A DNA stretch of 64,000 nt from Amphiscolops sp. MND2022 (lineage: Eukaryota). The position numbers and the translations under genes are program-made. The notes beneath the pieces were generated by a model that saw nothing but the letters and a program-made list of their open reading frames with translations, made no database searches and had not been told where the DNA came from. Positions 594-64,000 of the stretch are shown in pieces (within the stretch, counting starts at the first letter, position 1; each line of letters starts with the position of its first letter). The stretch covers positions 77,006,001 to 77,070,000 of the forward strand of contig OZ076409.1 of the NCBI GenBank assembly GCA_964187785.1, read 5' to 3'.

Positions 594-1787
594 ACCTAAA
601 TGAAAAGAGATAATTCGATGCGGACAACTTCCTGAATATGAGTCCATCCAAACCGCAGTAAAATCTTCCGGAAGTGAAAAGGAATAAAACATGACGTCTA
701 AATTGCATTGACGAAAATGGACAGGAAGTGCATGAACGAGATGAAAAGCCTTGATCAAGCTTATTTCCGTTCAAAAATTAAAAGACCAGATAGCTTACCT
801 GCAGTTGTTGGCCAATTGGGAGCTGAAGGAGTATGACGTGAAGATCGTTGACGTATTGAAATTGTACTGCAATCCAGGCTAGAAAATCCTGAGGAACCGA
901 ATGTCCTGATCGGGCAAATCTTTGGCAGTGAAGAGGGAGGAGTAGGTCTTGATAACGACGAAAAGGGAGATCTGGACGAGTCCGGCAACTGGACAACGAT
1001 CCTGAACGAGGGGATGAGAGGCAGTATGAAATTCACAGAAGTGCTGTGGGGTAACGGAAGAAGTATAATATTCAAACAATGACTCTGTACTAAATAAACA
1101 ATGGATAAATACGAATATGGAAAAGTAACGATTAATGAATTGGAAGAAGACGAAATTGATTGCAAGAGCAAAGTTGGAGTTCGTGGCAAACTGGATTTGA
1201 TGTCAAATATTTTTACAATTATGAGAATTATTTTGTGGATGGAATCTGCCAGAGAAATCCACATTAGTTATATTTCGAAACATGCATTTTCATTATTTTA
1301 TTACCTTAGTTATTTCATTATTTTTAGTTATTTTATTATTTCCTTATTTGGATTATTATTTTTAATTCCGCCATATTGAAAAGCGGACTGAGTGGGCGAT
1401 TCCCATTGGCTGTCGCGGCGATGCGCTGCGCGTGGCCTTAAAACTTCATCACCCTCTCTTGAAATTCTCAAGTGGATATCAAGTGGAGATAAACACTAGG
1501 CGAAGTCCTTGAAGGTTCTTTGCCGACTTAGGCAAGCTGAAGTTGATCGTCGGTCAACAAAGCAGAAGGCGGTCTATATCAAAGAACATCTTGGAAAGTT
1601 TAGTCAGCGAAACATGATGCGGGAAACGAAAGACCGGGAAAATGTGAAGCAAAACCATCGAGAAATTGAGAAATGAAAATCGCCATTTGCTTCCTAACTT
1701 TCAAACTAAACAGCTGCTCTACTCAAACCAAATTAAAATTGTCCTATTGCATTCAAAATTGCAAAAAAGATAATAAAAGATAGATTT

Positions 1788-2627
1788 ATGGCTCAACGAT
1801 TTCCTGAAGACTTCATCGGCGCAGCGCCCGAGGGCATAGATATCATCTGCCTGTCCAGCGACGAAGAGGAGGGAATGTGTGACCTAAGCATGACTTCGGT
1901 GCTAGACCTTCAACTGTCATCGGAGGACGAAGAAGAAATAGATGACGAAATCATGATGATGGCCCAGTGTGTCGAGATGGAATTATCATCACCCATCCCA
2001 GTGCCTGGTCCATCCACAGCGCTGAAAATTAGAAACGAGGCCCCCCGATATAACCCACCAAGGTACGGGACCTCCGGGGCGAGTTTTGCAACAAGGCCTA
2101 CTCTTGACCAATCCTTCTTCTCATTAGAAAAAGGAAACGGCCCAATACGGCGAGACGACCGAGTGCGCAATAATCACCCTATCAAGCTGTGTAGGGAAAT
2201 CATTCCCATGGTGGACACTTCCATGTCGCCCCCACCAGAAGAGAAAGGACCAACTTACGACACCTATTCAGCGGACGGTCAGGGCGAGATTACCCAGCAG
2301 TCATTGGACGCAGTTGCAAACCATTTCCAAGGAATGGAGATTGAGACGAACAATCCTATGGCAAATTACTCAGATTGCGTGATATGTGGGAAATCTACAT
2401 TACAAATCCAGAGTGAAGCTGTCACAGACTACTTGCACAAGACGGCCATTTTGGGAGAATCGGCAGATCAACTAGAAGCGCGCAAAAGAGCCTTTTTGGA
2501 AGGAATGCAAGTGGGCACTTTCTTATTGCTACCAGGGGGAGTGTCGCAGGCTGCCGCCTGCGATGGCAACATTTACACGATTGACCATACGAAGCCAATC
2601 GCCCTACCTGGGACGCTCCCATTGTAA
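1788..2627 (+). CDS. Accessory ORF-X of element 0 (acidic, SIM-like motif, CxxC), C-terminus overlaps the 3' LTR
   Basis: 279 aa ORF clearly homologous to 7306-8088 (IICLSSDEEE/VIYISSSEEE, MSPP, CVICGKS/CMVCGRS, VSQAAACDG, PGTLP). Confidence 0.8.
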   Translation: MAQRFPEDFIGAAPEGIDIICLSSDEEEGMCDLSMTSVLDLQLSSEDEEEIDDEIMMMAQCVEMELSSPIPVPGPSTALKIRNEAPRYNPPRYGTSGASFATRPTLDQSFFSLEKGNGPIRRDDRVRNNHPIKLCREIIPMVDTSMSPPPEEKGPTYDTYSADGQGEITQQSLDAVANHFQGMEIETNNPMANYSDCVICGKSTLQIQSEAVTDYLHKTAILGESADQLEARKRAFLEGMQVGTFLLLPGGVSQAAACDGNIYTIDHTKPIALPGTLPL

Positions 2628-4169
2628 ACCAAAACTTTCAAACATTTAGTATTATTTTGAACATGTAATATTAATTGATGAATTATATTGTTATTTCTTA
2701 TGTAAAATACATTTGACAGCAAGACATACTGACAGGCAGAAAGGAAACGTGTTCAAATGTTTACCTGCTCAGTATGGCTAGCTAAGCCGCCTACGGTCAA
2801 TTGGCCAATCAGAGTGCAGTTTGTAATAGCCATCTTATTACTTATTACGTAACTGTGCTAATAACTATTTAGAATGGACCAAGGCGGCCAACTAACTTTG
2901 CCGGCCTTTTTGTGCTCTAATGCTATACTTGATTGGTATTCAGTAATTACAAATAGGACGAAAGCGGCTATGTGACATAGCCGTCCCAATTCACTGTATT
3001 AATTGTCTTGGTGCTATGCAGTAAATAAGGCCTGTCATGGCCGGTTGGCACGATGAATACTCAAATGCTGTATACTTGCCATATGAAATTGGTATTCCAG
3101 TTAATTAGTGGCTTGAAGATGCAAATAACCCACCCCATGCAATAAACAGACATATACACTGTTAACATGTAATTGTTGCTCTCTCATATTATGATGGGAC
3201 TGAATTAGAAAACCCCAACGGCCATACGCCGAACAGGGCCTTCATGAATTGTTGTGCATGTAAACTGTTGCTTGCATGAATTATACTTGTAAACAATTTG
3301 ACCCATATGTGGATGAGACTTGTCGGGCCCTTTGATCTAGCCGCCCGCACAAGTCTAAAATGATGTCATGTTACTATTTATAGTGCTGACGTATCTCTTT
3401 TTAGTTTGCGTTGCTATTTTTAGTATCATGACCGTTACAATTTTGCCTGTCATGCCCTCTGAGGTATATATACCCAAGTCGGCCTGACAAAGGTTAATCA
3501 TAATTTAGCAGCTACCTGATACACTACGCTCATTTTGATTAATCTGAAAATAGAAATACTTGTCCACAGGAACAATTCAAATATTTTCTCCTGGAATAAT
3601 ATTTTCAATGCCTTCTACGAGGAGACAAAAGGCCAAGTCTAGAAAATCGAGAGAATTAGATATGTTGTCCGACTACGGCAACATGGACGTGATGCTAGGT
3701 GGGAGAAGTTCCAACTCTATAGAGAGAGAACTCGATAGCTTGATTAACGTCCCTGAGGGACAACGAGACTTTCAGTCCTTTCCAAATAGAGAAAACTCAT
3801 CTCAAGAAAATGAGATTAGAGACATTGATAGTAGAAATGAACCAGTTAGGGAAAGTAGGCTAATTGAGTCTATCAATACGCTATCTGGTGAAATGAACGC
3901 TAGGATGTCACGCGAGATGGAGGCTATGATGGACCTAATGCAATCACAAATTACCAGAGCCATTAGCTCTGCTATAAGCGAGAGAATTATTCCGGAAATA
4001 CAAAATATGGTTGAAAACTTGCCTTTGTGTCAAAATGGCGTTGGGCCGGGTACGTCCCTAAATGAGGATGGAGTCAGAAGCGCATGGGAGAACGCAAATA
4101 CAAGATTGACAAAGAAGGACTCTAGGTCCGCTTGTGACTTGAGAGAACATCCGGACGTTAGTCCTTACA
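2542..4169 (+). repeat. 3' LTR of element 0 (1628 bp)
   Basis: TG...CA ends inferred by homology to the element A LTR start and by the Gag reading phase; preceded by purine run AGGGGGAG. Confidence 0.75.
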
Positions 4170-4237
4170 ATGCGACTTACCGGAAACTTCGAAAAAAAAT
4201 TCAAAAAAATTCGGAAATTTTTTTTCTCAATTTTTAG
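3608..4237 (+). CDS. LTR-encoded Gag N-terminal ORF running into flanking DNA
   Basis: MPSTRRQKAKSRKSRELDMLSD matches the element A Gag start MPTTRKQKKARKSRGLEMLSD; similarity stops at the LTR end (4169). Confidence 0.75.
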   Translation: MPSTRRQKAKSRKSRELDMLSDYGNMDVMLGGRSSNSIERELDSLINVPEGQRDFQSFPNRENSSQENEIRDIDSRNEPVRESRLIESINTLSGEMNARMSREMEAMMDLMQSQITRAISSAISERIIPEIQNMVENLPLCQNGVGPGTSLNEDGVRSAWENANTRLTKKDSRSACDLREHPDVSPYNATYRKLRKKIQKNSEIFFLNF

Positions 4238-4290
4238 TTTTTTGAGAGCTTTTGTTGTCTCCAGTTGTAGAAAAAGTGGTTTTCGAGTCT

Positions 4291-4336
4291 TTTTGAGCCT
4301 TAGATATGGCGCCGACTTGGGCCGTTCCCGGCTTGT
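4291..4336 (-). repeat. Dispersed repeat terminus (ACAAGCCGGGAACGG...GTCGGCGCCATATCTAAGGCTCAAAA), probable non-autonomous element
   Basis: Similar copies at 25023-25067, 54827-54872 and 56914-56959 (+). Confidence 0.7.
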
Positions 4337-5402
4337 TTCTGATTTGTTCTTATCCTCGGGAGGACTTTTTACTGGTGATGATGGAGTACCTTCCTAATCA
4401 AGCTGGATTCAATGTTGGTTGCGCGAGGTCAACTCATAATTCATCCGGCCACTCCGGTTTTGCTTTAGGGTTGACCTCTTTGCCTTCAAATCAAATTCTA
4501 GTTCTTCTTGGCTTGGTTTTCCAGGTGTCCAGGTACATTTCGTTATAAACCTTTTTGTGAAACAAAATATCTCGGTATTTGTTGGTTGAACTGTGGTTGG
4601 ACGGGAAAAACAATGTTTTTGTTTATGAGTTTTGTTTAATTTTCCTATGTTTTCAGTTAAAACGGTATGACCAATTTGTTCTTGCAACGTACGTCCAGCT
4701 AGCAGCGTACATCCTAGAACTGGGACAACGCCTAAGGTTGCATAAGCAGGAGACCATTGTCCTACTACAACGCTAGACACTCTTTTGATCCCAGATTGGT
4801 CTCCTAGGGGGACTATTCTAGTGTCGAGGAGGCTCATGTTAGAGCTCCGAGGCGATGCGCCAACACTCTCAAAGTCCGGACACGCCCCACAGACCTGTAA
4901 AAACGTTTCCTATTGTTCCTAATTTATTCTTGCGTCTCCTACATACCTTCGAGGTCCGAAAACGGCAGTTGGCTAAAATACATTGAATTTCCGGAATAAG
5001 ATCTAAAACGGAGAAAATAGGGATCTGCTAGATCAAACATCACCAAAAACCTGCAAAAACCCCAAATACGGTACAACAGGCTAAGGAAACATCAGGAGTC
5101 AGTGTCAGCGAGGAGTCTTGGACTTGCGAGGTGGCACATGCAAACTTCTGAGTTTCCTCATCTCTGGGGCAATTTTTCGGGTTCTGCTGTTAGCCGTGAC
5201 GTCTTCCGAAGGGAATGGCTCCGCACGGCGATTTCAGGGATATCTCCATGGCCATTTTTCTCTTGTGCGATGCTTCGAATTTTTAGAAAAACTCTATTTC
5301 TGGAAGGTGTTCTGTCACAAGGCTGCTGGACGTTACATCTATTGTCCCATTGGGGATTTCTGTAGGGCCATCTTTTTGAATTTGTTTTCACCACCGATAA
5401 AG

Positions 5403-6119
5403 TTATTTACTAACGGTTGTTAGAGGACTTCCGGTTCCTTCGTTTCTTCTCGCGGTGGTTTTCATCTTTGATATGACAGGGAGATACAAGGGCTCCATGG
5501 AGTAATCGTTGGCAAGAAACGCATAACACGTAATGTCATGAACATTTAGGTCAGGGTAATCACCGTTCAATTGATTCACATATTGTTCGTTTCTTAAGCT
5601 ACTCTTTGCGTTAAGGTTTCGCTGAACTTCGGAATTTGGTTCCGGTCTCTCGGCCGGAACGTCCCATCCCTTTCTGATCCTGTGTCCTGGTTCGGCCATT
5701 ATAACATTTTGGATTTGAGGAAGTACTTGAGTACTTATCGCGTCGTTTATGGCTCTCTGTATTTGGACACTTACGGAATTCATCATCTCATCCATTTCCC
5801 GTGAAATACGAGAGTTCAGTTCGCTAGACAATCTGTTTATTTCAGCGCTAGAATCACCTGTGATAGAATTGCGATCACACTCGGCATTCATCCTAGGTTC
5901 AACATTTCCCCTGGGTCTACTTCCGTTCCCGTCCCCATTGTCAGACTCATTACTAGCAAAACTCCTAGACCTCCTAGGTAAATTGCTATTCAGGCTACCT
6001 TCTCTTTCTCGTGCACCAAAATGGTTTTCGCCTAACATGATATCCAGATTTTCAATATCTGATAACATCTCAAGTCCTCTAGACTTTCGCGCTTTCTTTT
6101 GCTTTCTAGTGGTAGGCAT
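5403..6119 (-). CDS. LTR-encoded Gag N-terminus (195 aa) fused to flank-derived tail
   Basis: Near-identical to the first 195 aa of Gag at 20412, diverging exactly at the LTR end (5534). Confidence 0.7.
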   Translation of the reverse strand: MPTTRKQKKARKSRGLEMLSDIENLDIMLGENHFGAREREGSLNSNLPRRSRSFASNESDNGDGNGSRPRGNVEPRMNAECDRNSITGDSSAEINRLSSELNSRISREMDEMMNSVSVQIQRAINDAISTQVLPQIQNVIMAEPGHRIRKGWDVPAERPEPNSEVQRNLNAKSSLRNEQYVNQLNGDYPDLNVHDITCYAFLANDYSMEPLYLPVISKMKTTARRNEGTGSPLTTVSK

Positions 6120-7394
6120 TAAGACAGAACCGGGTTGAATAATTCAATTATCAAAACCGGAAAACTGACAAAAGTCGTTGTGTTAATTCAATCTTTATCA
6201 AAGTAAAGGTATGGGATTTGTGTCCTTTTTTTACAGAAATATAGCTATATATACTCCTAAAAAGATGACACTCACATTCCACAAATTCTTTGATCAAGAA
6301 AACATCATATGACTATGGCCTCAACGGGTCATGTGACAAGTGTTATTACAGCATCGGGTAGGGTGTTCAACACTTCAAAGCAGATATTTTAGGGTGATGT
6401 CCCGATTGGTAAAATTCCTAGTTTCAGGGTAGTCCTTAGGAATTCAACATCAAAAGAATGATATTTAACAGGGTACACAAGCAGCACCTTCAAGTGTCGT
6501 GTTTATAAACATCATCAACATCATCCTGTCAACAAATACCAATGTCTATTGAAGGAATGCAAAAGGCATCTCTTCGGAATGTGCTTGTGGCACGCGTTAC
6601 CACGCGCCTATTATTCAACGTGAGTAGGAACTAGATTAAATATTACATGATCAGTTCTGCTTAAAATAATACAGCATTTTTAAAATAACACACTTTCTGA
6701 CAATGCCGAAGATGGACAAATCCGGTTTATTAATTCTGCACTGTAATAAAAGAGAGAAAAAGCCTTATTCGGCTTTTGAGTGAGTACTAGGTTTATTAAG
6801 CTCATTGCGCGGCATTGGGGCTTTCATTCATTATTAAGAGTACATTTACAGTAATTTACGATTAGTACACCCAATTAACACATATACAGGCTATTCCAAC
6901 GAAGTGGCCGGAACCGGCCGTTTGACTAAAGGGCACAATTATTGAGTCAATTGGCCATACTCGGCCATTACATAATCAAAGTGGTATTACTTATAGAAAA
7001 GGAGCAACGTGATTGGCTAAGGAGTTGAGCTCAAGTGACGTCTCCGGAATAGGAGTTTCGTTCACTTGAACTCGTTTCCTTTCTACTGTACAGCTACATT
7101 GTCACGTATTACGTTTACAATAGCAAAGCGCCTTTCAATCTTTTGAAGTTACAAATACACTATTTGAATCTTCAAATGTGACTTTTAACAGACTAATTTT
7201 ACATGTGCAAGTATATATATATATCGAAGCTAACAACATCAACAAACATATTACGTATTGAATAACAAAACAGTATGAAAGTTCTAAGTTTGTAAATTAT
7301 CCCAATTAATAAATGGGTAATGTTCCGGGTACGAATTCTTGTCCAGTTGCCGACGTTGTCACACTCGTACCGTCACAGGCGGCAGCCTGCGACA
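5534..7394 (-). repeat. 3' LTR of element A (1861 bp)
   Basis: Direct repeat of 19827-21684; about 16 differences counted by eye. Confidence 0.95.
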
Positions 7395-8088
7395 CTGCCG
7401 GAGTAATAAAAAGAAAACAGCCGGCGTTAAGTCCGTTCTCGTACGCTTCCTTCCTAAGCCTGGTGATGTGCTCAGGCTCATCTCTGGGTGTGGATCGCTG
7501 CATGTACCATTCCACCTTCTCGTTCTTGATCGAGTCCACTGAACGGCCGCAAACCATGCATCCCGTATAAGGCACCGCACTGACATTTTGATAGGGCACT
7601 GTGTTTTGCACATGGTAGGACGCATGGAAGTTACTCGTGATTGACTGTGCAAGGGGAGTGTCTAAGCTTGGCCCTCTCTCGTGTTCCGGAGGTGACATTG
7701 GCGATTCTAGGACGGGCATTATTGTGTTACAGAGCTCTATGCGTTTCTTTTCAATTCTCCTTGGCGGGGCATAACACATTTCCCTGTCAAAATATTTAAT
7801 GCCCAGTTTCGGTGTCGTTCCTTCTTCTACATGAGACGTACTTGGCCCTACTCTCGCTTCATCTTCAGGCTCATCCATGGTCATTATCCTGCCCCCGATT
7901 AGCACGGGACTGGAAGTAACTTCCCTTTCAATCCGGGCAATTAGCTGCTCGGTATCTGTCGAACAATCGGTCTCCCAGTCTGAGGATTCTTCTTCACTAC
8001 TGGATATGTAGATTACTGATTTGCTAGAATCATCGGACTCATATTCCTCAAAGTCAAACAACTTTCTTGAGAGGTTGAACTTACTCAT
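7306..8088 (-). CDS. Accessory ORF-X of element A (SIM-like motif, CxxC), overlaps the 3' LTR
   Basis: Homolog of 1788-2627. The ATG at 8088 (MSKFNL) matches the homolog's length; the frame is open to 8286. Confidence 0.8.
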   Translation of the reverse strand: MSKFNLSRKLFDFEEYESDDSSKSVIYISSSEEESSDWETDCSTDTEQLIARIEREVTSSPVLIGGRIMTMDEPEDEARVGPSTSHVEEGTTPKLGIKYFDREMCYAPPRRIEKKRIELCNTIMPVLESPMSPPEHERGPSLDTPLAQSITSNFHASYHVQNTVPYQNVSAVPYTGCMVCGRSVDSIKNEKVEWYMQRSTPRDEPEHITRLRKEAYENGLNAGCFLFITPAVSQAAACDGTSVTTSATGQEFVPGTLPIY

Positions 8089-8973
8089 TATTAGTTTTTT
8101 AGCGATTTTTGAAGCTGATAAGGCAACTGATTCGAGGTGAAGTTTTAGGTAGAATGAATTTATCCGATTCAAGAATTTAGCCCAGTAAGGCTTTTCCGAA
8201 GTTTCCAATTTGGCGGTTAAAACATCGGTTAGTCGTCCTGATCCGTCGTAAACTTTCCTGAATGGAATTCCATAACTAATCGGCACCCTTTGATATTTCA
8301 GTGTTTACCCCTCATCGGCGTCATCACTATGAGAGGTGTGAATGACGCTTGAATTATTAATATCAACTACACCAGTCTCAAGTGGGTAATTAACGGGTCG
8401 CTTGTAAGCAATTAACGGCATGCGTCGCAAAGTTTTCTCAAAATGGGCTTCAGCCAATCAGAATTGAGCTTTGATAAATTGTAAAATTGAATAATAAAAT
8501 GGCGGAAAATAATAATCCCGAATAATTCCAAATGGCGATAGTTTCGCCTGGAGATAATTAGGGTAATGGGACAACCCGGCAGAATAAAATAAGGCGAATG
8601 GCCTTAACCGGCCATTAATTGGATAATCTGTAGAAAGGTGAGGTTGTTCTGTGCATTTCGCTGGCAGACTCCATGCACTATTATAAATATGTAAATAACT
8701 ATATAATATTAGTCTGGTAATTTCTTCAGCCACGAACTCCAACTTTCCAATTCCTTTATTCATCTTTAATTCCATTCGAATTCTATTTATATATCAATTG
8801 TTTCCCTTACTGGGATTCTCCTAGCTGATATTCATCTTCCCTTTGTCTCTAACTCTGCTGTCGATCCCCTCTCTGCAGCACTAGGGCCCCTAACTTCAGT
8901 CCACCCACGGCCATTTCCCTCAGCTTCTTTCGCCCGACGAGAGCATTTACTGTACGAGTAACATTACGGCAAC

Positions 8974-11900
8974 ATGTCTTCCAATCCAGGTTGGTTTGAT
9001 TTTCTCTTTCTTTCAAACAAGCTTAGCTTGATCAAGGCTAAACATTGTTCACATGACGCTTCCTGTTTCCATCAACTAGACGCGTGAAAGCACGCTTCAT
9101 TCAATTTTCAAGACACTTCCGGAAGATTTCCAACGCGGTAAAATGGACACTTTTCAAGGAAGCATACCGCTAAACTTTATCTCTTTTCGTTTAGATAATC
9201 AGGCTTCTGAGATTGAGAACGCATCAAACCCTTCTGGACTGCCGCAAACAATTTCCAATGAAGGTACAGTTCCAAGCGTGGCGTACATCGCCAGATCTGT
9301 GATTTCTCCTCAAAGCGTCGAATGTGAGGTAGACGTGAATGCCTATGCAGAAGCTAAAGTGCAAGAAATGGAGGTCGAGCAGATCCAAGTACAACAACGA
9401 TCACCCACCAGTGATCCCAATTTGATGACGGCCAATCCTGAGGCTTCCACTAATGACTATGTTCCCCAGAGTTTAGTCCCCGTTCGGTCTAGCACCCCAA
9501 TACCGATGGAGACTGCTGGAATATCCCAAGCTAGCTTGCACACATTAGAGGCAGGTCTAACAGTTGTAAACAACCCTGGATCCCAATTACCTGAGCTCCT
9601 TCCTGCCACTGAAGCGGAGACCGTTGTTCCGCCAGTTAGGAGAACCTTGGATGACGAGGATGGCGAATCTTCTGTATATGAAGTTCCTATGCTGCCCACC
9701 CAGGAACACAAAGTCCGGTTCTTGACCGACTTAACTGAGGCTGATAAGACAACCGTGGAGGCGAGCAGTACCGAATGTCCTTCACTCTATGGAGATATTC
9801 CTGGAATGTCTGAATCTGGAAGAGAGACCAGTGAATGCCCTGACACTACCGTCCTCAGGCAGCACCAGACCGACCCACAGGCATCCACTTCTCAAGGCTT
9901 TGACGTCCAGCCTCCTGAACTTTCTGGAAGGGCACGAGCCATACTGAAAACTTATTTCGATGAGACACATGCCTTTCGGTTCCCACCAGGACAAACAGCA
10001 GTTGCCTTCACAGAGTCTCAGGTGTATCACCTGTTACGCGTCTTAAGTGACGAAACGCTTCGGATGTCACATTCTACTATGGAAAGAATGATCCTGGATG
10101 CAGTCCGGGGCAGTCCTACAATCGCCCCATCACGCACTGACCTTTTCAAATCAAGGACCAGAGCACAGACTCCTTACAGGCAAGTTGATAGCAATTCCAG
10201 CGACGCCGGGACCGGTGACTTGCCAACTACGGATTCAGAGGGACATGACACCATAGACCGGGGCACACTTGGCGACTCTTCCTCATTCGGAGAAAGCGAC
10301 AGTGCTGGCGAAATGGCCTTGATTTCGGCCTCTTTTAAAACTTCAGTCAAAACCACAGACGTCCCGATTGTTTCACCTAGAGAGCAGCCAGGAGTTATGC
10401 AGACTGGTAGTCAAGAAACTGACCGAAGCAGTCAGGATATCACTTTATCTGAGGTGAGAGAACAGTCACTGCGGTCTAAGACCAAGTTGCCGAGTAAGAA
10501 GACCCCGAAGGGCAAGAGACTACCTCAACGTGGAGTCCCAATGCGAGAGGAGTTCTTCGCAAAAATCGGTTGGACCCGGTCGTTTATCTCTGGGCCAGCG
10601 GATCCGATCCACAACCCCTTCATGGTCTGGTGTCACATTTGTAAGAAGAATTTCTCCATTAGAAGTAAAGGGCAATGGAGATACTCAGGCGCCACAGAAC
10701 TGAGAAACATCTTAGACGGGACCAGAGGTGGAGGTACGAGTATCTGAAAAGTACCGATCCAATTACGCTCAAGACCCAACACCGAGTCCGAGGCAGAAAT
10801 GCGAAGATCTTGAGCAAGATAGAACTGGCCAAGGAGCTCCCCAAGTTTATCCATGTGGAGTTAGTGGATATTGGAGAACGTTTTCCTTTCTACGAGGATT
10901 TCGTTCGAGGTAGGACTACTCCCTTGGTTACTCCCGAGTCCCGAGCAAGAACTCAGCTAAGCATGGTAGCTGATTTCATCCAGAGCTATGGCGACATCAC
11001 CATCCTCCGGAGCATGTGGGCCAAAATCAGTTCCATTACTGACCATCAAGCTTCCCTTTGCGACTTCGACTGGGGAGAAGAGAGGATGACTGTAAGTATT
11101 ATTTGCTTTCCCTTCTCACAGGACTTTTCCCTTTCTGGGTTATTAATATTTGGTCTGTGTCCATTTTAGGCAATATTCCAGCATTTCTTCAACTGCGCCA
11201 TGAGTGACGTCGCTGACCAAATTTCCAGTCTGCAATGATTTGCCTTGGAATTTGAAGACCAGGGGCCCAACCGCTTCATGTCCGTGAGGTTCTGGAAGGG
11301 TCAATATCTTTGCAAGGTCATCGCTTGTCGCAGCAGGCTACCCACCACCGACCTCACTGGAGAGTTAGGTTCCATGGCGCGACTCTTGTCTGCAATTTCA
11401 ACAAAGGCAGACGTAGTGGCCTGTTCTGGGTGTCCGGCCGACCTAATCCGGACCATAGATGAGCTCCCAACTTCAGTGCGGGCTGTTCAGAGCTGCTTCA
11501 GGTTCAACCAGCTCAATCTGTCCAAGTTGATGCACAAGAAGAACTACAGTGTCTTCGGCCACATAGACTTCTTCTCAGTGCTACGCGGCTTGGTCATCTC
11601 CCTGGGCGGGTTGACCGATGAGGACTGGATACAGCGCAGTCCCGAACTGGCCAAAGTAAGTGGGCGCTCGTATCATATTGTAGCACTAACTCGCACTCCT
11701 AAGGGTTTCTAGACGGGTTATTGCAGTGGCTCCGCCTTTTCTTTAGGCTATTTCCAAGAGCGATCTAGACCTGTCTACACTGCCCTTCTTGTGTCAAGAA
11801 CTCATGGACGAGTGGAAGTCCGTGGTCTCTTTCCTTACCGAGCACTCTCCCAAACAACTGGGCCAAGGAGTCAGAACTAGAGTAAGTGTCTCAACTCAGG

Positions 11901-13267
11901 TTTCGTCTTTTCCTATTAAACGGGGAAGTCTTGTAGTCGCACCGTAAACCTTTTGTTGCAGGTTCAGAGCTTTGAATGGTCACTCATCTGTGATGAGTTC
12001 TTTCCAGTGAAGTTGGAATTCTTCTATCACCTCATTAGTGATTGTTAGTTTGTTTTGATAGTCTAGGATTTTCCTTTTGGACCAATACACCTAAGTATCT
12101 TGTGTTTTAGACAACTCTAGTTTCTCCTCCAACTTGCATAAGGGACGTGATTCCTGCTTCTATCTTTGCGGGGAAGTTGCCCGTTACGTCTACAGACTGT
12201 GCTTCCGGTGTTATGCTCCTGATACCATCCCTCTCGAAAATTCGTGGTTCTTGCTTCTAAACTTCCAAACCAGTGAGGGGGCATTCCTCCCAGTTGATGA
12301 GTTCCTCAATCGGCTGAATATGAAGAACAAAGTTGCTAAAGCTAGTAGGCAAAAATCAGAAGGCATCCATTCTGGGAAGAAATCTGACAGGTCCGCAGTG
12401 CAGAAGACCGCAGAAACCATCAAGAATGATTTCGTCCGAGACTGCCAAAATTTCATCCAGTTCCTGATAGGGGGTGTTCTTCACCAGGCCGGACTCTGCT
12501 CTAATCTCGTTCGTGGCCTTGCTGCTTTTGACCCTTATATAATGGTAAAAAGGCCCACTGAAGTAGCGTTACGTCACTTCTACTTATTATATCGGACCTT
12601 TCAGCTCAGGTCTTGGGTCAGTCTAGCAAATGAGTCCACCTGCCGGGACGAGTACGTGGAGCTATTGGACCATCTCAAGGCTTCTTCTCTTCCTTCATTC
12701 GATGTTAGCCAGGGATCACCGGATCTTATTGATTTCCTTGTCAATCTTGACTTTATGCAGGAGCATAGTCGTCTGTTATATCTATTCAAGTTGAGTTGTT
12801 TATGCATTACGTCTGAAAGTCCTCAATACCCAACAGTACGTATTGGAACTGCCAACACTACAAGTCATCAGAACAGACTCACAGACGTGGTTTTACCCGT
12901 CCAGAGTTATCTGTCAGGGGTTCCGGACTCCACTGCCTTCTGTATCAGTGACTCTAGTTTGGCTAAGTTTTCCTTTCTTTCTGCCTCCTTCAGTCAAACT
13001 GTCTCATCTGCCTCATACGACCCCTGGACTTCCGTTGACGAGTTTGGTAGGAATAGAATTTACAAGTCCCTTCTTACGTCATATCGTTCTGCCCTTTCTG
13101 GATTAGGTGAAGTGGGCCTCGATGAGACAACGTCTTCCAGCGTTGGAGATATGCCTGCAGTAGTCCCGCCCGGTGACCGCAAACGGAAGCGCATGGAGAG
13201 GAGCAGATCCCGCTCGAGAGCCTCGTCCGTCGTCAGAGAGTCTCCTGCCGGTTGTTCTAAGGACTAA
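8974..13267 (+). pseudogene. Antisense 6-exon zinc-finger gene (hAT-transposase-like) inside element A, ~1257 aa, with one frameshift and one stop
   Basis: Phase-compatible GT-AG exons 8974-8989, 9195-11091, 11170-11655, 11747-11881, 11962-12043, 12111-13267. Finger WCHICKKNFSIRSKG-MEILRRHRTEKH. Frameshift near 10672 and TGA at 11236. Confidence 0.85.
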
Positions 13268-13510
13268 TTGTACATACGTATTTATGTACTTATGAACTGT
13301 AAACTTTGTTATTTTTCTGTTTTGTTGTCTTTTGTATCTCCATTTGTTGCAATGCCTCTGTATTTATTTACCTGAAAGGGGTTCTTCGGTTGTCCCATTA
13401 TTCATTCAAAAAATACCATGTTGCATGGGACTGAAAAAATAAAAGAAATGAAATGATAGAAGAAAAGGAATAGGTCCAAGGCTTGTCACCTGGCCAAAAT
13501 TCAATCTTTT

Positions 13511-16500
13511 CTAGTATCTAAAGTCTTCTGAGTAGTTTGGGTTAGGGTTAGGCCTGAGATTATATTTCCCTCCTCTAGGGCTCAGACTTTCATTTCTAGC
13601 ATCGTTTTCAGGTATTTCGGGCACGTATTTTGTGCGTCATTTTCATTCGTCTAAATTCTTTCTGGGAGAATTTCATCATTTTTTGGTCTTTTATCCGTAT
13701 TCGGTAAAGTTTTTTCTCGTCCTTTGGGGTAAACGGCCGGATTCGGCCAATCAGATTTGCTGTTGCTAGTCGCTTCACTAGCTTCATTCCTTTTTGTGAC
13801 GTCATGATTTAATCTTTCATTCCGGTTCCGCGCCGCGTGGTCAGCGTAGTTTGTTTTGCCTCTCGTGATTATGTAATCCGCTTCATTCTCGGCTACGTCA
13901 TTTGTATTCGTTTCTGCCGCATTCGGTCGTTCGCCATTCGACATGCTGGTCGGAATAGTCTCGTTGCCTCGTGTAACTAGCTGCTCGCCAAAGTCGGTTT
14001 CCCACGTTATGACGTATAAATCATCTTGCGGAATGACAATTTCTTCGTCTGGCTGCAACTGTTGTTCTTGGAAATTGTCCTCAAGAGGCTAATTAGGGAC
14101 AAACTTTTTAAGACGAATGCGATGCAAAATTTGGGTTTTGTTCGTAGTGATCCGTCTTACTATATAGTTTTCATTTGGCAAAACCTTTTGGACTACAAAT
14201 GGTCCAACCCAACGGTAATCGCGGAATGGAATTTTTGATCCCTGATTGTCCGCTTTCGGCTGTAGGACAAAACAGTATTCGTTCTCCTTTAGTGGAGCGG
14301 CTTTTGCTTTGCGGTCGTAATATTCTTTGTACTTGATATACGAACTGCATAATGTTCTGCTTTGTTTTGTCAATCAGGATTTTTGTCCGGTTTTGGATCT
14401 CTTCAGCAAATTCGGTTGTGGGGTTAATTTGCTCGTTTGGATTATTTCCAAGCTTGTGATCCAAAATATTAAATGGAATTCTTCCATGAAATACTCTCGT
14501 TGGCTCACAACCGATGCTGGCGTGATAGCTTGTATTATGGTTCAGTACTGCTAATGGCAAGTATTTGTGCCACTGTCGGCGATATTCCCCACATGCCATT
14601 TTGAGATTTGTTTTCAATGAGGCATGAGTTCGCTCCAATTTCCCAATTGTCTGCGGGTGTTTTGTCGTTGCACATTTGAGTGTGATGCCCAAAATCTGCG
14701 TAACCTCCGCAATAATTGTAGAAGTAAATGCAGTACCTTTATCAGTGATAAGAGTAGTTGGTAGATATGAGTGTTTAGTCATAATGTCAATGAGCGCTTT
14801 TGCTACATTGATCGCTGATGCGTCCGTAAGGGGATAGGCGAACAAATATCTGGAGAATACATCAATTGCTGTTAAGACGTTTTCATATCCTCCACTTGGT
14901 GGAAGATTCGGCAATAGGTCTATTTGCATGGCGTCTTCAGGTCCGAGGTCCCATTCGGGCAAGTTAAGCAGCTCAGGTGTGATCGTTGCGTTAGGGACTC
15001 TTTTGTCTCTGGCACATTGTTCGCACCCTTCTACCCACTTTTTGACGTGTTTAGCCATGCTAGGGTAGTAATACCTCTGTCGAATTTCCTGCAGCATTTT
15101 TGAAATCCCAGGATGTTTATGCGCTGTCCCGTGAAGAGATTGGAGCAATTCTTGGAGTAAATGTTGCGGGAGTGAAATTTGATGGTATTTCACATTCCCT
15201 GATTCATCGAAATATTGCCTTGTCAGGATTTCGTCCTTTAGTACAATTCGTTCCAGATTGTTTGCGTAATGTCTATATCGGGCATCCTGGTGCAGTAGAT
15301 TTTCTGAATACTCTTCATGAAGCAGTTTTGCTTTCAGTTGTTGTAGTACCGCATCTTTGGATTGCTCGATAATGATCTGGTTCGTTTTCCTCAATCGGAC
15401 TTGTATATCGGGGTGTTGCTTGACCAGATTTGTTGACAGAATTTGTATAGTAACAGTGGGCTCATCAGTTGCTGGATTTTTCCTGATTGCTTCTTTTCTT
15501 GCCCAAAACTGTTCTTCTGTCTCATCGTCGTCATCGGTGTAGAAGATTTGTTCTTCCTGCGACACCCCTGCGGATTGGACATTGATTTCGATTGGTAGTG
15601 TCTGTACGTCTTCACGAATTTTCATCACCAATTTGTCCTTTGGATCTGCTTCCAATCGGGACAAATAGTCGGCGGCTGTATTTTGTGCCCCTGGGATGTG
15701 TGCTATGACAAAATTGAATTGAATGACGTAATCACACGCGTTCCACAGGGCTTGGGGTATTATTTTCGTTTGGAAAAATCTCGTGACAGCTTTGTTGTCC
15801 GTAATGATGATGACCGGTTTCGGCGCACCCCAGAAGATATGTCCGAATTCTTTGAATGCAAAATAAATTGCAAGGAATTCCTTGGCATAAATTGACATTT
15901 TGATCTGTGCTGGGGTGAAAGTTTTTGATCCGTACGCGACTGGTGCATACGATTTTCTGAGTGAGGTAAATTTCTGGCTTGGGTCGTCTTCGATTAGGAC
16001 CGCGTACCCGGCTGCACCAAAACTTGCATCAGTCATTAGTGCTATTTGTTTGTTCGGAATGGGTTGTTGTAGGGCCAGGTCGCAACATTTGTCTAGTGCT
16101 CTATTGATTTCTTCGAATTGTTGGACTAATTCTTTCGATACTAGGACCTTTTCGTCACTTTTGAGCATCTTGTAGAATGGAGCAAGGCGTTCGGAGAGTC
16201 TTGGGACATAATTCCTGTAATAGTTTAGGAATCCCAAGTAGCGCTGTAAAGCCTTTTTCGACTTCGGGAATTTAGTCTTTTCCAGAAAGTTTTGCACATT
16301 CTGTTTCTGGGGTTTGACGCCTTGTGGGGTAATAGTCCGTCCGAGAAAATCGATTTCTTTTGCACCGAAGTGACATTTGTGCATTGTTAACTTAAGGCCT
16401 GCTTCCTGAATGCATTTGAATGTAGCTCTCAGGTTCGTCATGAGGTGGTCAACATCATTGGCTGCGATGCCAATATCGTCCACATACTGGGCACACTGAT

Positions 16501-18697
16501 CCGCTTTGATGACTTTGTCAAGGTATTCCCTCATGAAACTCGAGAATGCGGATAGTGACCGACTAAGGCCTTGTGCCAAACGTCTGTAGGCGAATGTGCG
16601 ACTGGCAAAATTGAAAGCCAACATTTCGATTGAACGTTGGTCAGCCATTGGTAGGCAGTGGTATGCCTGCGAACAGTCTAATTTACAGAACAGTTTTTTG
16701 CCTGCCAAATGTTGGGCGGCATCAACTAGTGTACTGACGGGATGATTGTTGTTGATATAATCATCCGAGATGAGGTTGTTGATTTTTCTCAAGTCAACCA
16801 AGAGTCGGAGTTTCCCGTTCGGTTTCTTTTGTGCCAATATTGGGCTCGCGTATTTCGAAAATGGCAGTGTAGTTATTATGCCATATTTGTGTAACATTTG
16901 TGGCTAATTCGACTAGGATGTCCTCCTTCAGATTGATAGGAGCTGGAAGGCTTTGACTATAGGCTGGGGAATCGTCCTTAGGTGTCAGTTTCACTTTGAA
17001 TTCCTCGTTCATGCCTATATCAAATCGGTGTCGTGCAAAGATGTCATAGAATTCCACTAACAATTCCTCAATTTTCTCCTTCTCTTCAGGAGTAAGGGTG
17101 GAATCTTTCCAGTCAAAGTTTTCTAAGAATTTTGCACGCGATTCTGCATCTGTGGTGGGGTCGAGTGTCTCCAGGTCCTGTAAGGCCTGTAACTCGCGTA
17201 GGATTCGTTTTTGTATAGGTGTGTGTTCCTCAGGATTTCCAGGGTTTTCTGGAGTTGGGAACCAATAATTTTCGGAGTTTTGTGGATTTCTATTGGTTTT
17301 GATGAGACTGCTGACATAATGGGCTGCTTGCTCCTGGTCATTCTGCAAAAGGTGCCAGGTTGATGCCGGGTCTACCAGTTTGACATACTTCATCTGTTCT
17401 GGCGTCATGACAGAGAAATTGGCAATATGTAGTCCCTTTTTGAGTTTATAAGGGTGGTCTGTGAAGTTGCTCACTGGTATCGATATATTGCCGTCATTCA
17501 GAGTGACCAAGGCTGGGCAGAATGTGATGTCGCCTTCTTCATGTAGGAGGTCGCTCGGTTGCAAAATCCCAGTGACAGCATTTTCAGGGTATAGTAAGGA
17601 ATTAGTCCGGATTAGGACTCTGTCATTTGGTGGAATGGTTATTTCAGCAGGGTTGAGGATTGGTTCAAGTACGTTTGAGTACTTATGGTCAGCTGTTTTG
17701 AGCTGCATTGAAAAGAACGGGAAATTCAAAATTCCTTGTCTCATGTCCAGTACTGTATGATTTCGTTGAAGGAACATTAGTCCAATGATCGGTCCCGTCA
17801 GATGTTCCATCACTATGAAGATTTAATGGAACTCAATGTCACCAACTTCGAATTTGAGCTCGATGGTACTCTTAGGAGTTTCCAGTTGCCCATTAGCGAC
17901 CATGATTTGGAAATTCGGAGGCGGACCTTCCCGGATAACGGATTGTGGAGATAAAAGTCGAATTTTCCGGAGGTCCATTTCAGGAATTGCACTGGACAGC
18001 GCTCCAGTGTCAATAAGTCCATCTATGGTCAATTCCCCAAAGTCCATTGGGAAATACAACATGCGTTTTTTGCATTTGAGGTTGATGTTGGTTGACAGGG
18101 GTATACAGTCTGGTTCACCGTCTCTGGTGATTAAGACATTTTGGAACTGTTTTTCGTCTAGCAATGATTGTGGTATGGGTTCAATGTTGCTGTCATGGGT
18201 CTCAGTCCCCAATGGGTTTGGGAACACTGGATGGTTTGTGCCATCATTCTTTTGCCAGTTTTCAATTAGCGCTCTTGTTTTCTTGTTATGGGTAATTGGA
18301 GGGTTCTCGTGGGCTGTTCTATTATAATGTTCAGTATCGTCCAGAACATATTGAAATTGCAGTAAATCTTGGTTGTAAAGCTCGGTGTCCCAGTAGGGAT
18401 CTCTGCCGTAGTCTGGATCGATGTATGTCGGATTGTAATCATCGATTAGGGGAATGGGCCTGAAGCGGGTGGTGAAGGTAGTGGTGTAATCAGGGTCCCA
18501 AACAGGAATTGGTTTCTGGAATAAATGGGTGTTATTGTAGGTGATGATGGTAGCTTTTTCCATCTGTTGCTGCCAGACAACAGAGGGATAGCCCATCAAT
18601 TGCTGATTGTATTGGTGGAAAGTTTGCGTTGGAGGGTCCGATCTGATGTATTGTCGGACAGATATTAGTTCGTTATATTGGAGTCGTGGCGAAGTTA
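13511..18697 (-). pseudogene. pol: pol of element A (protease, RT, RNase H, integrase), frameshifted
   Basis: LIDTGA protease, YVDD RT, TDAS RNase H, H-HPG-CxxC and D..D..E integrase, WVGPF motif; split over several ORFs. Confidence 0.95.
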
Positions 18698-20412
18698 GTT
18701 TTTTGACTCATCATTAGGATATGAGGATTGGGAGCCCGATGATGTCGGTTTGGTCTGAGGTTTCTGAGCCTTTGGATTGAAAAGTCTTTATTCTCAGTTG
18801 AGTCCTCAGGTCTAGTGCGTTTGGGTTTAAGATGTGCACCAGCAACTTGCCAACATCGTTCTTCCGGGTGGTTCTTTTTGCCACAAGTGCCACACTCCGG
18901 GTATGTTTTCTTCTGCGTTGACTTGCCTTGTTGGGCATCTTTCTCTTTTTCTTTTTCAGTTTTTCGCAGTCTTTGACCATGTGGCCTTTTTCCTTGCAAT
19001 AAGTGCAAGTAATGTCTGACATTTGCCCAGTGGACAGAGGAGTTTTAGATTTTGTAGTCGAGGAGGTCATTGTGGCCTATTGGTAGGTCATCTGATTCCT
19101 CAAGGGCGTTGAGTTCCAACTCTCTCTCCAAATGAGCAACAATTTCATCATATGAGCCATTTTCTAGTCTGGCCATGTTGACAGACCGCTTCAACTTAGG
19201 TGGCAATTTTGCATAGAGCAAGCTGTCAATCATTTTCTGTGCATGATCACCAAACGCCTTCTCGGCTCCCTGGTTTAATTCTTCGAGAAAATCAGGCAGC
19301 TTCATCGTATTGGGATCGAAGACTAGGCGGTGCCATTTATGTTTGGCAGTCGCCTGTGACTCGGGTTTGACGTATTTCCGTCTAAAGATGACTAGTACGT
19401 CCTCTAGAGTTTGTCGGTTGCTTGAGCTGATATTTCTGAACGTCTGAAGAGCATTCTTCCTCAATAAAGAGTGGAAGTGATTGATCTTCATTTGCTCAGT
19501 CATTTCTGGCTGCATCTTGATCATAGTGTGAAATAGGTCTTCGAACAGCTCGAATTTCTCACTTTTGCCATCGAATGTCATGGTATTTGAGTTGACTGGG
19601 CGTATGGTGAGTTGTTGGGCTGTCAGTCTAATTTGCATTGTAGTCAAGACGTCTGCCAGTCGGGTGATGGGGTCGGAGTCAGCAGCCGTAGCGATTCTCT
19701 CTTGTGCTGGGATCGTCGTGTCGAGGTTGATGTCCTCAAAGGACCTGTCGAGATGATTTCGGGATGAGATGCGTCCTGAGAGAAACTCAGGAACTGGATT
19801 TGTAGATTCGTTGTCTCCTGTCACCATGTCATGAACATTTAGGTCAGGGTAATCACCGTTCAATTGATTCACATATTGTTCGTTTCTTAAGCTACTCTTT
19901 GCGTTAAGGTTTCGCTGAACTTCGGAATTTGGTTCCGGTCCCTCGGCCGGAACGTCCCATCCCTTTCTGATCCTGTGTCCTGGTTCGGCCATTATAACAT
20001 TTTGGATTTGAGGAAGTACTTGAGTACTTATCGCGTCGTTTATGGCTCTCTGTATTTGGACACTTACGGAATTCATCATCTCATCCATTTCCCGTGAAAT
20101 ACGAGAGTTCAGTTCGCTAGACAATCTGTTTATTTCAGCGCTAGAATCACCTGTGATAGAATTGCGATCACACTCGGCATTCATCCTAGGTTCAATATTT
20201 CCCCTGGGTCTACTTCCGTTCCCGTCCCCATTGTCAGACTCATTACTAGCAAAACTCCTAGACCTCCTAGGTAAATTGCTATTCAGGCTACCTTCTCTTT
20301 CTCGTGCACCAAAATGGTTTTCGCCTAACATGATATCCAGATTTTCAATATCTGATAACATCTCAAGTCCTCTAGACTTTCTTGCTTTCTTTTGCTTTCT
20401 AGTGGTAGGCAT
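18695..20412 (-). pseudogene. gag: gag of element A (zinc knuckles, frameshifted in 3' part)
   Basis: Retrotransposon Gag core (TFDGKSEKFELFEDLF), knuckles CTYCKEKGHMVKDC and CGTCGKKNHPEERC; slippery A AAA AAC (18704-18698) just before TAA. Confidence 0.9.
19815..19826 (-). other. Primer binding site TGGTGACAGGAG (tRNA-Leu-like, inferred)
   Basis: Immediately follows the LTR-terminal CA; the same 12-mer follows the LTRs of B and D. Confidence 0.85.
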
Positions 20413-21684
20413 TAAGACAGAACCGGGTTGAATAATTCAATTATCAAAACCGGAAAACTGACAAAAGTCGTTGTATTAATTCAATCTTTATCAAAGTAAA
20501 GGTATGGGATTTGTGTCCTTTTTTACAGAAATATAGCTATATATACTCCTAAAAAGATGACACTCACATTCCACAAATTCTTTGATCAAGAAAACATCAT
20601 ATGACTATGGCCTCAACGGGTCATGTGACAAGTGTTATTACAGCATCGGGTAGGGTGTTCAACACTTCAAAGCAGATATTTTAGGGTGATGTCCCGATTG
20701 GGAAAATTCCTAGTTTCAGGGTAGTCCTTAGGAATTCAACATCAAAAGAATGATATTTAACAGGGTACACAAGCAGCACCTTCAAGTGTCGTGTTTATAA
20801 ACATCATCAACATCATCCTGTCAACAAATACCAATGTCTATTGAAGGAATGCAAAAGGCATCTCTTCGGAATGTGCTTGTGGCACGCGTTACCACGCGCC
20901 TATTATTCAACGTGAGTAGGAACTAGATTAAATATTACATGATCAGTTCTGCTTAAAATAATACAGCATTATTAAAATAACACACTTTCTGACAATGCCG
21001 AAGATGGACAAATCCGGTTTATTAATTCAGCACTGTAATAAAAGAGGGAAAAAGCCTTATTCGGCTTTTGAGTGAGTACTAGGTTTATTAAGCTCATTGC
21101 GCGGCATTGGGGCTTTCATTCATTATTAAGAGTACATTTACAGTAATTTACGATTAGTACACCCAATTAACACACATACAGGCTATTCCAACGAAGTGGC
21201 CGGAACCGGCCGTTTGACTAAAAGGCACAATTATTGAGTCAATTGGCCATACTCGGCCATTACATAATCAAAGTGGTATTACTTATAGAAAAGGAGCAAC
21301 GTGATTGGCTAAGGAGTTGAGCTCAAGTGACGTCTCCGAAATAGGAGTTTCGTTCACTTGAACTCGTTTCCTTTCTACTGTACAGCTACATTGTCACGTA
21401 TTACGTTTACAATAGCAAAGCGCCTTTCAATCTTTTGAAGTTACAAATACACTATTTGAATCTTCAAATGTGACTTTTAACAGACTAATTTTACAATTGC
21501 AAGTATATATATATCGAAGCTAACAACATCAACAAACATATTACGTATTGAATAACAAAACAGTATGAAAGTTCTAAGTTTGTAAATTATCCCAATTAAT
21601 AAATGGGTAATGTTCCGGGTACGAATTCTTGTCCAGTTGCCGACGTTGTCACACTCGTACCGTCACAGGCGGCAGCCTGCGACA
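19827..21684 (-). repeat. 5' LTR of element A (1858 bp)
   Basis: Direct repeat of 5534-7394, followed by the PBS. Confidence 0.95.
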
Positions 21685-23268
21685 CGTAACATGATTGACT
21701 GAGACATGTTCTGGCTTTAACGAATCATATTTGTGTTTGTTTGGAACTACCAGGAACATTAGGAATTTCATTACCTTGTTTTCTACTGTAAGGTAATTCG
21801 ATTCCATTCTAGTAAGGATTGCTTTTCTATTTGATCTATGCTAACTTATTGCTTTTTGTCAAGTTTTTTTCGTATATTCTTGTATAATTGACCGAATGAA
21901 GTTTTTGATGTTTGGATAGTTCGTTTTACAAGATCGGTACTACATCCAATAATACTTTTCATACCATTTTTTACCTGTAAAGTCTATTTTCATGCCTTTT
22001 TCGAGTCTTTGAGTTTGTATACAGTGACTTGAAATATCTAGGAGCTGTTCCGTTTTTGTCCTGGGTTCTTATTTTCTTCTGTTCGAAACTTCAAGCGATT
22101 TTTGCATTGTTCGATGAGCCTGGTTATCGTCGTCAACGATATGGGTTCATTGTGTAGTTATTGTATAGTCATACTTTTGTGTTATTACTTGATGAACATA
22201 AACACAAATGCAGCAACGAAAGACAAATAATTGATATTGTACAACGCCAAAAATAAAAAAGTAAAATCTGTTGTCAGTATAGTTAAATACAATAGATTTC
22301 CTATATATCCCTGTTCACAAGCCCCAAATTTGAGAAATTAATTCGAGGCTTTAGATCAAAAAGTGACAAAAAATGAAGCAGCATAGTTATAACGTGAAAG
22401 TTTTGGAAGCATCCAAGACTGAGATAGAGATCATAAATGTTGGAAGAAGTTTTCAAATGAAATTGTGTTTGAACGATTAAAATAGGCATATTCTTCGAAT
22501 ATTTACAGTCTTTTCTCAACATCGAGAGTTTAATCTCACAAAATACTCTTGTTGAGCGTCAATTAGAATAGAATTGAGCGACCTGTGCAGTAACAAGATT
22601 GGTCGAAAAAAAAGTTTCCCATAGCTGAAAAATAAGAATAATATTTTTTGCATGACATTCTTGAGAAATGGAGAATATAATTTTTTCTCCGAATAACTTT
22701 GTCCCTACTCATATCGCTCAATGCTAATCCAATTGACCCTTAAAATGACTATTTTGTAAGATTGCTTTCAATTCATTTCTTTTGCGAAGTTCATGATGGG
22801 ATTATCATGTAACATTTTTGAATCATTGCATTGTTTTCTGTTGTCCTAGTATCGTTAAACATTCATACTGAACAATCCTCATTATTTCATCATCAATTAT
22901 GTTTGTTTTTCTGTTAGTTGATTATTATAGATCTAAGTTCAGCTTTCAACTATTTTAGTGGGTGGCATAAAGAAGTATCTCGTTTCAATCTTGGTAATTT
23001 CAAGTCAGTGCAGTTCATGGAAACAAAAACTACATTTTGCCATCAAGACTATAAGATAAACGAGTTTTTTGAAGATTGTATTGAATCAGCTTTGTTGACT
23101 CCGAAATTTATCATCTAATTTTGGCAAAGATACGATTTTATTCTTTTAAAATTTTAACTTTAAACTTGTTTTTATAACTTTTTCAAAAATTCAACTGCAA
23201 CCTTTGTTTTTATTTTTGAGCAACCGTGACTGCACTGCTGAAATGTTTAGTTGCGAGGCCCTCAGAAG

Positions 23269-55600: not shown

Positions 55601-55989
55601 CTACGGTCGGAAAAAAACAGGTAGTTGTTGGCAAGCTCCAATTTTTTGGCGCTGAATCGAATGCTACGATGTTTCTGTTGAAGTGTTGATATCAAAGATA
55701 CGTGCACGATGTGATTCTCTTCAACCACTCATTCAATCTTTCCGTACAAGGTCCGGTTCGGAGTTTGCAAAACTCATCTGCACTTCGCACTCAGGCTACT
55801 TTCACAGCTCCGCTATCTTGTTGTTTTTGGCAAATTAAATCTGTGGTTTACAAACTTTTTTGAGCACACTAGCTGCGGTCACTTAATCGAAATAATATGG
55901 AATTTTTACAGACGCTTCACTTCATCTATGAACAGCATCTGTTGAAGTTCAATTGGAAAGAAAAACTTTGGAAAACTCTTACGCGCTAA

Positions 55990-63976: not shown

Positions 63977-63986
63977 GCAAACATAA
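59760..63986 (+). pseudogene. pol: pol of element D (stop at 60390, truncated after WCGP)
   Basis: LIDTGA, YVDD, SDAS, HPG..CQVC, integrase core. Confidence 0.95.
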
Positions 63987-64000
63987 TCCGCAAAAAATCC

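Follow-up and report, generated by a model that had tools for sequence, protein, structure and literature searches.

An antisense, intron-containing gene of probable hAT transposase ancestry in Ty3/gypsy retrotransposons of Amphiscolops sp. MND2022

Introduction

How can a retrotransposon keep a gene with five introns, and from what did such a gene descend? These questions are raised by a 64-kb stretch of the genome of Amphiscolops sp. MND2022 (assembly GCA_964187785.1, contig OZ076409.1, positions 77,006,001–77,070,000 of the forward strand; hereafter the window, to which all coordinates refer). On its minus strand lies a Ty3/gypsy long terminal repeat (LTR) retrotransposon, element A, which carries a six-exon gene in antisense orientation (8974–13267, +) between pol and the 3′ LTR. 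A first-pass annotation, made from the sequence alone, had read this gene as a DNA transposase gene captured and repurposed by the retrotransposon. We find that the antisense gene belongs to the retrotransposon itself and is under selection there; its hAT origin is likely, not proven, and its repurposing is suggested by the selection that acts on it.

Structure of the antisense gene

All exons and introns of the gene lie on the plus strand, and all five introns are of the GT-AG type. Exon 1 (8974–8989) comprises 16 nt beginning with ATG, and this ATG and the adjoining splice donor are kept in all 21 family-A sequences. Intron 1 (8990–9194, phase 1) is followed by exon 2 (9195–11091), which encodes an acidic, S/P/T-rich, low-complexity N-terminus of roughly 450 amino acids (aa), a BED-like zinc finger and a helical linker. 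The finger (C-x2-C-x16-H-x5-H; 10631–10710) has ligands that do not vary among the 17 sequences aligned from three families, and the Pfam zf-BED family matched it in only 3 of the 17, weakly (best E 0.03). Intron 2 (11092–11169, phase 0) leads to exon 3 (11170–11655), which is predicted with low confidence, partly from the model of its family J counterpart, to form a helix-strand-strand-strand-helix arrangement resembling the start of an RNase-H-like fold. Intron 3 (11656–11746, phase 0), exon 4 (11747–11881), intron 4 (11882–11961, phase 0), exon 5 (11962–12043) and intron 5 (12044–12110, phase 1) precede exon 6 (12111–13267). The last exon encodes a helical domain with a weak likeness to the insertion and C-terminal region of hAT transposases, and all ten open copies have a C-terminal basic cluster, resembling a nuclear localization signal, at about residue 1229.

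The window copy itself is broken by a frameshift at ~10,670–10,680 in exon 2, which falls within the finger, and by an in-frame stop at 11,236–11,238 in exon 3. Its exons total 3773 nt, versus 3774 nt (1257 aa plus stop) in the nearest open copies. The exon–intron structure with a product of ~1257 aa, the long acidic N-terminus and the CxxC...H finger proposed in the first-pass annotation were all recovered, and the short segments that it quoted as recalling hAT transposases are present in the sequence.

Conservation and selection among family-A copies

When exon 6 was used to search the 1.07-Gb genome, 7463 candidates were obtained; 129 of them were scored and all of these matched, with 63–100% identity. 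Twenty of these, picked across the identity range, were fetched with 20 kb each. The gene lies between pol and an LTR-type repeat in all 20 copies, 17 of which are flanked by a 5-bp target duplication, the remaining three being rearranged or truncated. All ten splice dinucleotides are intact in 16 of the 20, and the lengths of exons 3, 4 and 5 are constant in 17, 18 and 20 of the 21 sequences, respectively; intron 2 varies from 72 to 249 nt. The gene is open from end to end (1252–1258 aa) in 10 of the 20 other copies, as compared with 7 of the same copies for RT-integrase. An intact gene at the same position in other copies, proposed as a check at the first pass, was found in every copy as to position and in half of them as to intactness. 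The paired LTRs of the carriers are 97–100% identical, and the carrier families are numerous and young.

The ratio of nonsynonymous to synonymous substitution rates (dN/dS), suggested earlier as a check on the gene, is 0.03–0.08 for the core between subfamilies, where dS is measurable, and 0.14–0.37 for the N-terminal 240 residues. Near-identical pairs gave values of 0.11, 0.15 and 0.87, as is expected when mutations that arose after insertion dominate. When exon 6 was read on the opposite strand in the same phase, dN exceeded dS in 9 of 9 pairs, which indicates that selection acts on the antisense frame.

Distribution among gypsy families

The gene had been described as a feature of element A; this is correct, and its scale was under-called, as it is clade-wide and present in at least four gypsy families. 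Element B, also located in the window (pol at 34863–39378, +), carries an antisense, intron-containing homologue with the same finger (42234–46107, −; mapped without its 5′ end). A search for the element B gene gave 1212 candidates, of which the best 126 were scored, and pol and LTR-type repeats occur in the same layout in all four copies fetched with context. The corresponding search for family J gave 7232 candidates (best 150 scored); the layout is the same in 5 of 5 fetched copies, four of them with a 5-bp duplication, and one copy (J2) was matched in the last exon only. In element C (58006–64000, +), pol ends at the window edge and a fourth version of the gene follows downstream. This version lies just past the window end (locus L168:800–5106, −) and has longer introns than the others.

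The RT-RNase H regions of the other families are 56–73% identical to that of family A, and the last exons of families B and J are 13–19% identical to that of A. Introns 2 and 5 occupy the same position and phase in families A, B and J, whereas families A and B share intron 3, which J lacks, and families A and J share intron 4, which B lacks. The sharing of intron positions and phases among families so diverged indicates that the antisense gene is old. A last-exon profile built from 26 sequences matched 1141 clusters at 50% identity (E ≤ 0.001) among 1.84 billion proteins, including 551 at E ≤ 1e-10, and 68 of the 150 clusters listed were <50% identical to any of the 26 query sequences. The 19 clusters that were checked were all without a name, and no related loci were found in metagenome and viral contigs. 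The search with the finger exon matched unnamed close relatives only, and a word-based search for longer exon 6 homologues found none.

Exchange of the gene between backbones

Among the 21 family-A sequences, DNA distances in the finger region closely match those in exon 6 (Spearman r 0.94), versus r values of only 0.01–0.22 between these distances and those of U3, the upstream block, integrase and RT. The window copy and another copy, F2, are separated by a dS of 0.2 in pol and of ~2.7 in exon 6, and a parallel case was found in family B, with 96% identity in pol and 51% in the last exon. The gene is thus exchanged as a unit between gag-pol backbones, and the mismatch of gene and pol distances indicates that old gene variants persist on interchangeable backbones. 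This exchange would be explained by template switching within the sequences that are conserved on either side of the gene (~8440–8745, and from 13,490 on).

Evidence bearing on a hAT origin

The hAT transposases include Hermes and the Ac-, Buster- and Tip100-type enzymes, and their domesticated derivatives include ZBED/DREF, ZNF862, GTF2IRD2 and DAYSLEEPER. That the antisense gene descends from a transposase of this superfamily is, in our judgement, quite probable, and the signals that point to it are weak but convergent. Clusters assigned to Dimer_Tnp_hAT (PF05699) make up 24 of the 30 language-model neighbours of exon 6, and one further neighbour is FAM200/GTF2IRD2-like. When an AlphaFold model of exon 6 (pLDDT 64.3) was compared with 48,161 chains, Hermes (8edg_A) ranked first (Z 5.5, rmsd 3.9, 86 residues), with model residues 130–235 lying on Hermes 426–567; of the 49 further rows listed, all but one lie on the N-terminal hairpin. 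In a comparison with Tip100-like hATs, 140 columns of a profile of 173 sequences were aligned, again in this C-terminal register (E 0.046). The order of domains (finger, helices, three strands, helical insertion and C-terminal helix) also fits that of hAT transposases. The motif spacing presumably resembles that of ZNF862-type hATs; searches for such hATs with the PF14291 and PF25431 families were without match, and motif scans gave one irrelevant locus or none.

Several results weigh against this ancestry. The recognition value (2195) and the shared features (150–155) of exon 6 in the language-model search are below the trust levels of the tool, and the exon 3/4 query had no hAT neighbour. 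The fold comparison envisaged at the first pass gave a divided answer: the Z-score of Hermes is tied with those of generic helical rows, and Foldseek returned no match at E ≤ 0.001 for either the exon 6 or the exon 3/4 model. One of 40 block-shuffled decoys outscored the alignment with the Tip100-like profile, and neither the profile comparisons with six Ac-type hATs of the same genome nor the whole-core comparisons with Tip100-like hATs were significant; profile scans of 120 Tip100-like proteins at 5 bits gave 1–2 forward and 0 reversed matches. No hAT family of Pfam was found in any of the 150 listed relatives. Pfam likewise gave no relevant family for the four long exon frames of the window copy, 26 last exons and 17 finger exons, and none of three profiles had a relevant match among PDB sequences. 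For exons 3–4, the family J counterpart was modelled as a helix, three strands and a helix (pLDDT 49.6), and structure comparison of this model yielded generic helices only, with no significant fold match.

The catalytic residues of a hAT transposase are largely gone. The predicted strand 1 commonly, though not invariably, ends in an acid; the residue that precedes the invariant Gly in exon 3, likely the counterpart of the second Asp, is S, E, R or Q; and no acid is conserved at 60% among 173 sequences between last-exon positions 205 and 302, around the place expected for the Glu, all these positions being assigned by weak alignments. The catalytic Glu of Hermes is Glu572. The DDE triad is thus not conserved, with the likely counterparts of the second and third acids missing, in agreement with the first-pass annotation, which had found no canonical DDE residues. 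Judged from these substitutions, catalysis by the antisense protein is very unlikely.

The search for hAT transposases in the genome gave 2215 candidates, the best 150 of which were scored as matches. Long open transposase frames occur in several hAT families of the genome (Ac-type families and one Tip100-like family), and none of the sampled resident families (L128–L135, L164 and L167) is detectably close to the antisense gene.

Possible role of the antisense protein and alternative explanations

We lean towards the explanation that these elements form a gypsy clade with a selected antisense gene, likely hAT-derived, whose product is predicted to be a nuclear DNA-binding helper of the retrotransposon. 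An ancestral gypsy element would have received a hAT insertion in backward orientation, the ends of which were then lost. The introns would persist through retrotransposition because the genomic, packaged RNA is the opposite strand, on which they are not splice sites. The gene may be transcribed from the conserved block at 8440–8745, and its product would bind element DNA through the zinc finger, set on an old transposase scaffold, and the long acidic N-terminus might sustain transcription of the element or counter its silencing, whether in cis or in trans. Against this helper role, the gene lineage does not track the U3/promoter lineage (the r values of 0.01–0.22 given above), so that recognition of a cognate LTR variant is unsupported.

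An alternative to which we give a minor share of probability also takes the gene to be hAT-derived and element-borne, and places its action after transcription: the protein would tether or import the pre-integration complex, or steer integration, by means of a scaffold that holds DNA ends. The sequence evidence for it is the same as for a DNA-binding helper, and it fits the independence of gene lineages from U3 and the conservation of LTR termini across copies. Nuclear import of the pre-integration complex is also raised as a possible role of antisense open reading frames (ORFs) in the available text of PMC7264820. However, a separate antisense mRNA would offer its product no direct way into the Gag particle, and an acidic, low-complexity N-terminus of this length better suits transcriptional control.

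Somewhat less likely again is a selected accessory gene of non-hAT origin, namely another helical protein with a BED finger or an unrecognised fold, whose hAT appearance would be due to convergence or chance. The absence of significant Pfam, PDB-sequence and Foldseek matches and the low-confidence, generically helical exon 3/4 model accord with such an origin. Against it, a hAT protein comes first or close to first for the last exon by each of three unrelated methods, two of which agree in register, and the domain order fits that of hATs.

We regard as improbable a self-limiting or host-serving factor, such as a dominant-negative inhibitor of active hATs or a repressor of its own element. In its favour, the catalytic residues are gone while the finger and scaffold are kept, the genome has many hAT transposases, and antisense transcription itself can silence an element according to the portion of PMC7264820 available. 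However, the carrier families are numerous and young, as their near-identical paired LTRs indicate, and profile comparison detects no relationship between the protein and the resident hATs sampled, a distance that would make mixed oligomers unlikely.

The gene of the window copy is flanked by a 13-bp perfect inverted repeat (8564–8576 and 13388–13400), the sole flanking repeat with perfect arms. Both arms occur in only 2 of the 20 other copies, the nearest ones, and no 8-bp target-site duplication accompanies them; the repeat was therefore rejected as a terminal inverted repeat (TIR), and no conserved TIRs surround the gene among the copies examined. An autonomous hAT DNA transposon was likewise rejected, there being neither TIRs, nor an 8-bp duplication, nor a conserved DDE triad, and the position of the gene being fixed. 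The signs of a nested DNA transposon against which the first-pass annotation had warned thus did not materialise, and a hAT transposon nested in the element and moving on its own, or a passenger in decay, to which the broken window copy and the 13-bp repeat might have pointed, is refuted for the copies examined by the fixed position in all of them, the core dN/dS values and the missing catalytic acids.

Structure of element A and other features of the window

Element A is bounded by a 5-bp target-site duplication (5529–5533 on the left and 21685–21689 on the right) and by LTRs with TG..CA termini that are 99.1% identical to one another (3′ LTR, 5534–7394, −; 5′ LTR, 19827–21684, −). Its pol (14171–18707, −) encodes protease, RT, RNase H and integrase, recognised by Pfam and arranged in this order, and the frame breaks upstream of RT in the window copy. 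A site resembling a primer-binding site (PBS; 19805–19826, −) starts with TGG immediately after the CA of the LTR, as do the PBS-like sites of families B and J, with which its LTR-proximal part is shared. The TG..CA LTR pair, a target duplication within the range of 4–6 bp, the order of pol domains and the PBS-like site identify the element as Ty3/gypsy.

A gag-like frame (19045–20436, −; DUF1759, E 1.7e-5) starts within the 5′ LTR, ~590 nt from its boundary, and crosses the LTR end and the PBS. Its first ~195 codons are present in both LTRs, the second copy of the start being included in the 3′ LTR (frame at 5403–6143, −), and a related frame lies at 3554–4237 (+). No purine-rich run corresponding to a polypurine tract was seen on the sense strand before the 3′ LTR; the sequence just before this LTR (7395–7430) is pyrimidine-rich and forms part of the coding sequence of orfX. 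This extra sense-strand ORF (7306–8304, −) overlaps the 3′ LTR by ~90 nt and is without Pfam match. It was matched in 20 of 20 other family-A copies and is under purifying selection (dN/dS 0.06–0.13 where dS is measurable). It carries a C-x2-C motif and has a relative at 1737–2627 (+).

Upstream of the antisense gene lies the conserved non-coding block (8440–8745, +), which contains a CCAAT motif and sub-blocks that are invariant in nine aligned copies while the adjoining 5′ untranslated region diverges. The block is the likely internal promoter of the antisense gene, and orfX and the antisense gene may share a bidirectional promoter. Within family A, divergence is greatest in U3 (6300–7300 and 20600–21600), with a median distance of 49% versus 11–12% for pol among the 21 sequences, which suggests rapid promoter turnover. 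An insert in element A (16794–17822) looks like the region of the weak dUTPase match in element B and is without Pfam match.

In element B, a weak dUTPase match (E 0.0047) lies between protease and RT (34863–36971, +), the LTR contains 60-bp tandem repeats (31833–32048), and the right end (48697–50957) is rearranged, with 909-bp duplications. Elsewhere in the window, we observed a near-perfect 114-bp palindrome (25103–25216), dispersed short repeats that may be MITE-like (4290–4348, 25023–25097 and 54815–57043), and a 347-aa low-complexity ORF (23251–24294, +) with a basic run and a CCFCF end, which has no Pfam match and is possibly a host exon.

Comparison with known systems

The closest parallels in position are the extra ORFs that plant Ty3/gypsy elements of the Retand/Tat group carry in antisense between pol and the 3′ LTR, such as gene23 of maize Grande and those of rice RIRE2 and Silene Retand, with the TRP28 domain (PF04195), as described in the available text of PMC7264820 and PMC11963269. 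An internal promoter and a nuclear product are reported there for the Grande ORF. In the available text of PMC7264820, the origin and function of these ORFs are called unknown and the ORFs are said to be without similarity to other transposons; the word 'intron' is absent from the available text of PMC11963269. The present gene resembles these ORFs, as there described, in being antisense, located between pol and the 3′ LTR (in families A, B, J and C) and conserved across copies, and differs from them in its five spliceosomal introns, product of ~1257 aa, BED-like finger and likely hAT core. TRP28 was not matched in the four long exon frames of the window copy, the 26 last exons, the 17 finger exons or the 150 listed relatives.

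The gene's points of likeness to hAT transposases are a BED-like finger, a three-strand start of the core predicted with low confidence and a weak C-terminal resemblance to Hermes 426–567, whereas it lacks TIRs, an 8-bp duplication and conserved second Asp and Glu residues, and has an extra N-terminus of ~450 aa. Unlike host-domesticated hATs, which are single host genes, it is maintained by a retrotransposon, across many copies and families. VANC of VANDAL and TnpA of Spm are anti-silencing DNA-binding proteins of DNA transposons. As non-catalytic, element-encoded DNA binders they may be functional analogues of the antisense protein, by analogy only.

The mRNA of HBZ is spliced, and HBZ and APH-2 are bZIP-type proteins. 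Both (HBZ of HTLV-1 and APH-2 of HTLV-2) are antisense-encoded nuclear regulators within an LTR retroelement, according to the available text of PMC11963269, and in being so encoded they resemble the present product. They are short and driven from the 3′ LTR, whereas the present gene is large, has several exons and a conserved block upstream of it inside the element, and probably descends from a transposase. Extra coding modules are also known from animal gypsy-like elements, namely the ORF3s of bdelloids (PMC5408684) and the domains of planarian Burro (PMC6431247); as far as the available texts describe them, these are env-like, DEDDy or GDSL ORFs or polyprotein domains, unlike the present gene. 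The words 'transposase' and 'intron' do not occur in the available text of PMC5408684, nor 'antisense' and 'hAT' in that of PMC6431247, and that of PMC13524379 contains no relevant terms. Full-text searches of part of the literature gave no account of a hAT-like antisense gene with several introns in LTR elements.

Significance

Automated annotation will miss the antisense gene, as no Pfam family recognises it. Its abundance, the intact young copies and the variants swapped between backbones make its role in element activity or silencing directly testable. The gene also shows a route by which a retroelement can retain a five-intron gene through repeated reverse transcription, and it provides a candidate ancestry for an antisense accessory gene of an LTR retrotransposon, a kind of ORF whose origin and function are called unknown in the available text of a review (PMC7264820). 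More tentatively, and with less than even confidence, we suggest that an ancient gypsy lineage may have domesticated a hAT transposase as an intron-bearing, freely exchanged, DNA-binding anti-silencing module, which would have aided the expansion of the clade through a gigabase genome. Hosts are known to domesticate transposases; in this case, it was probably a transposon of another class that did so.

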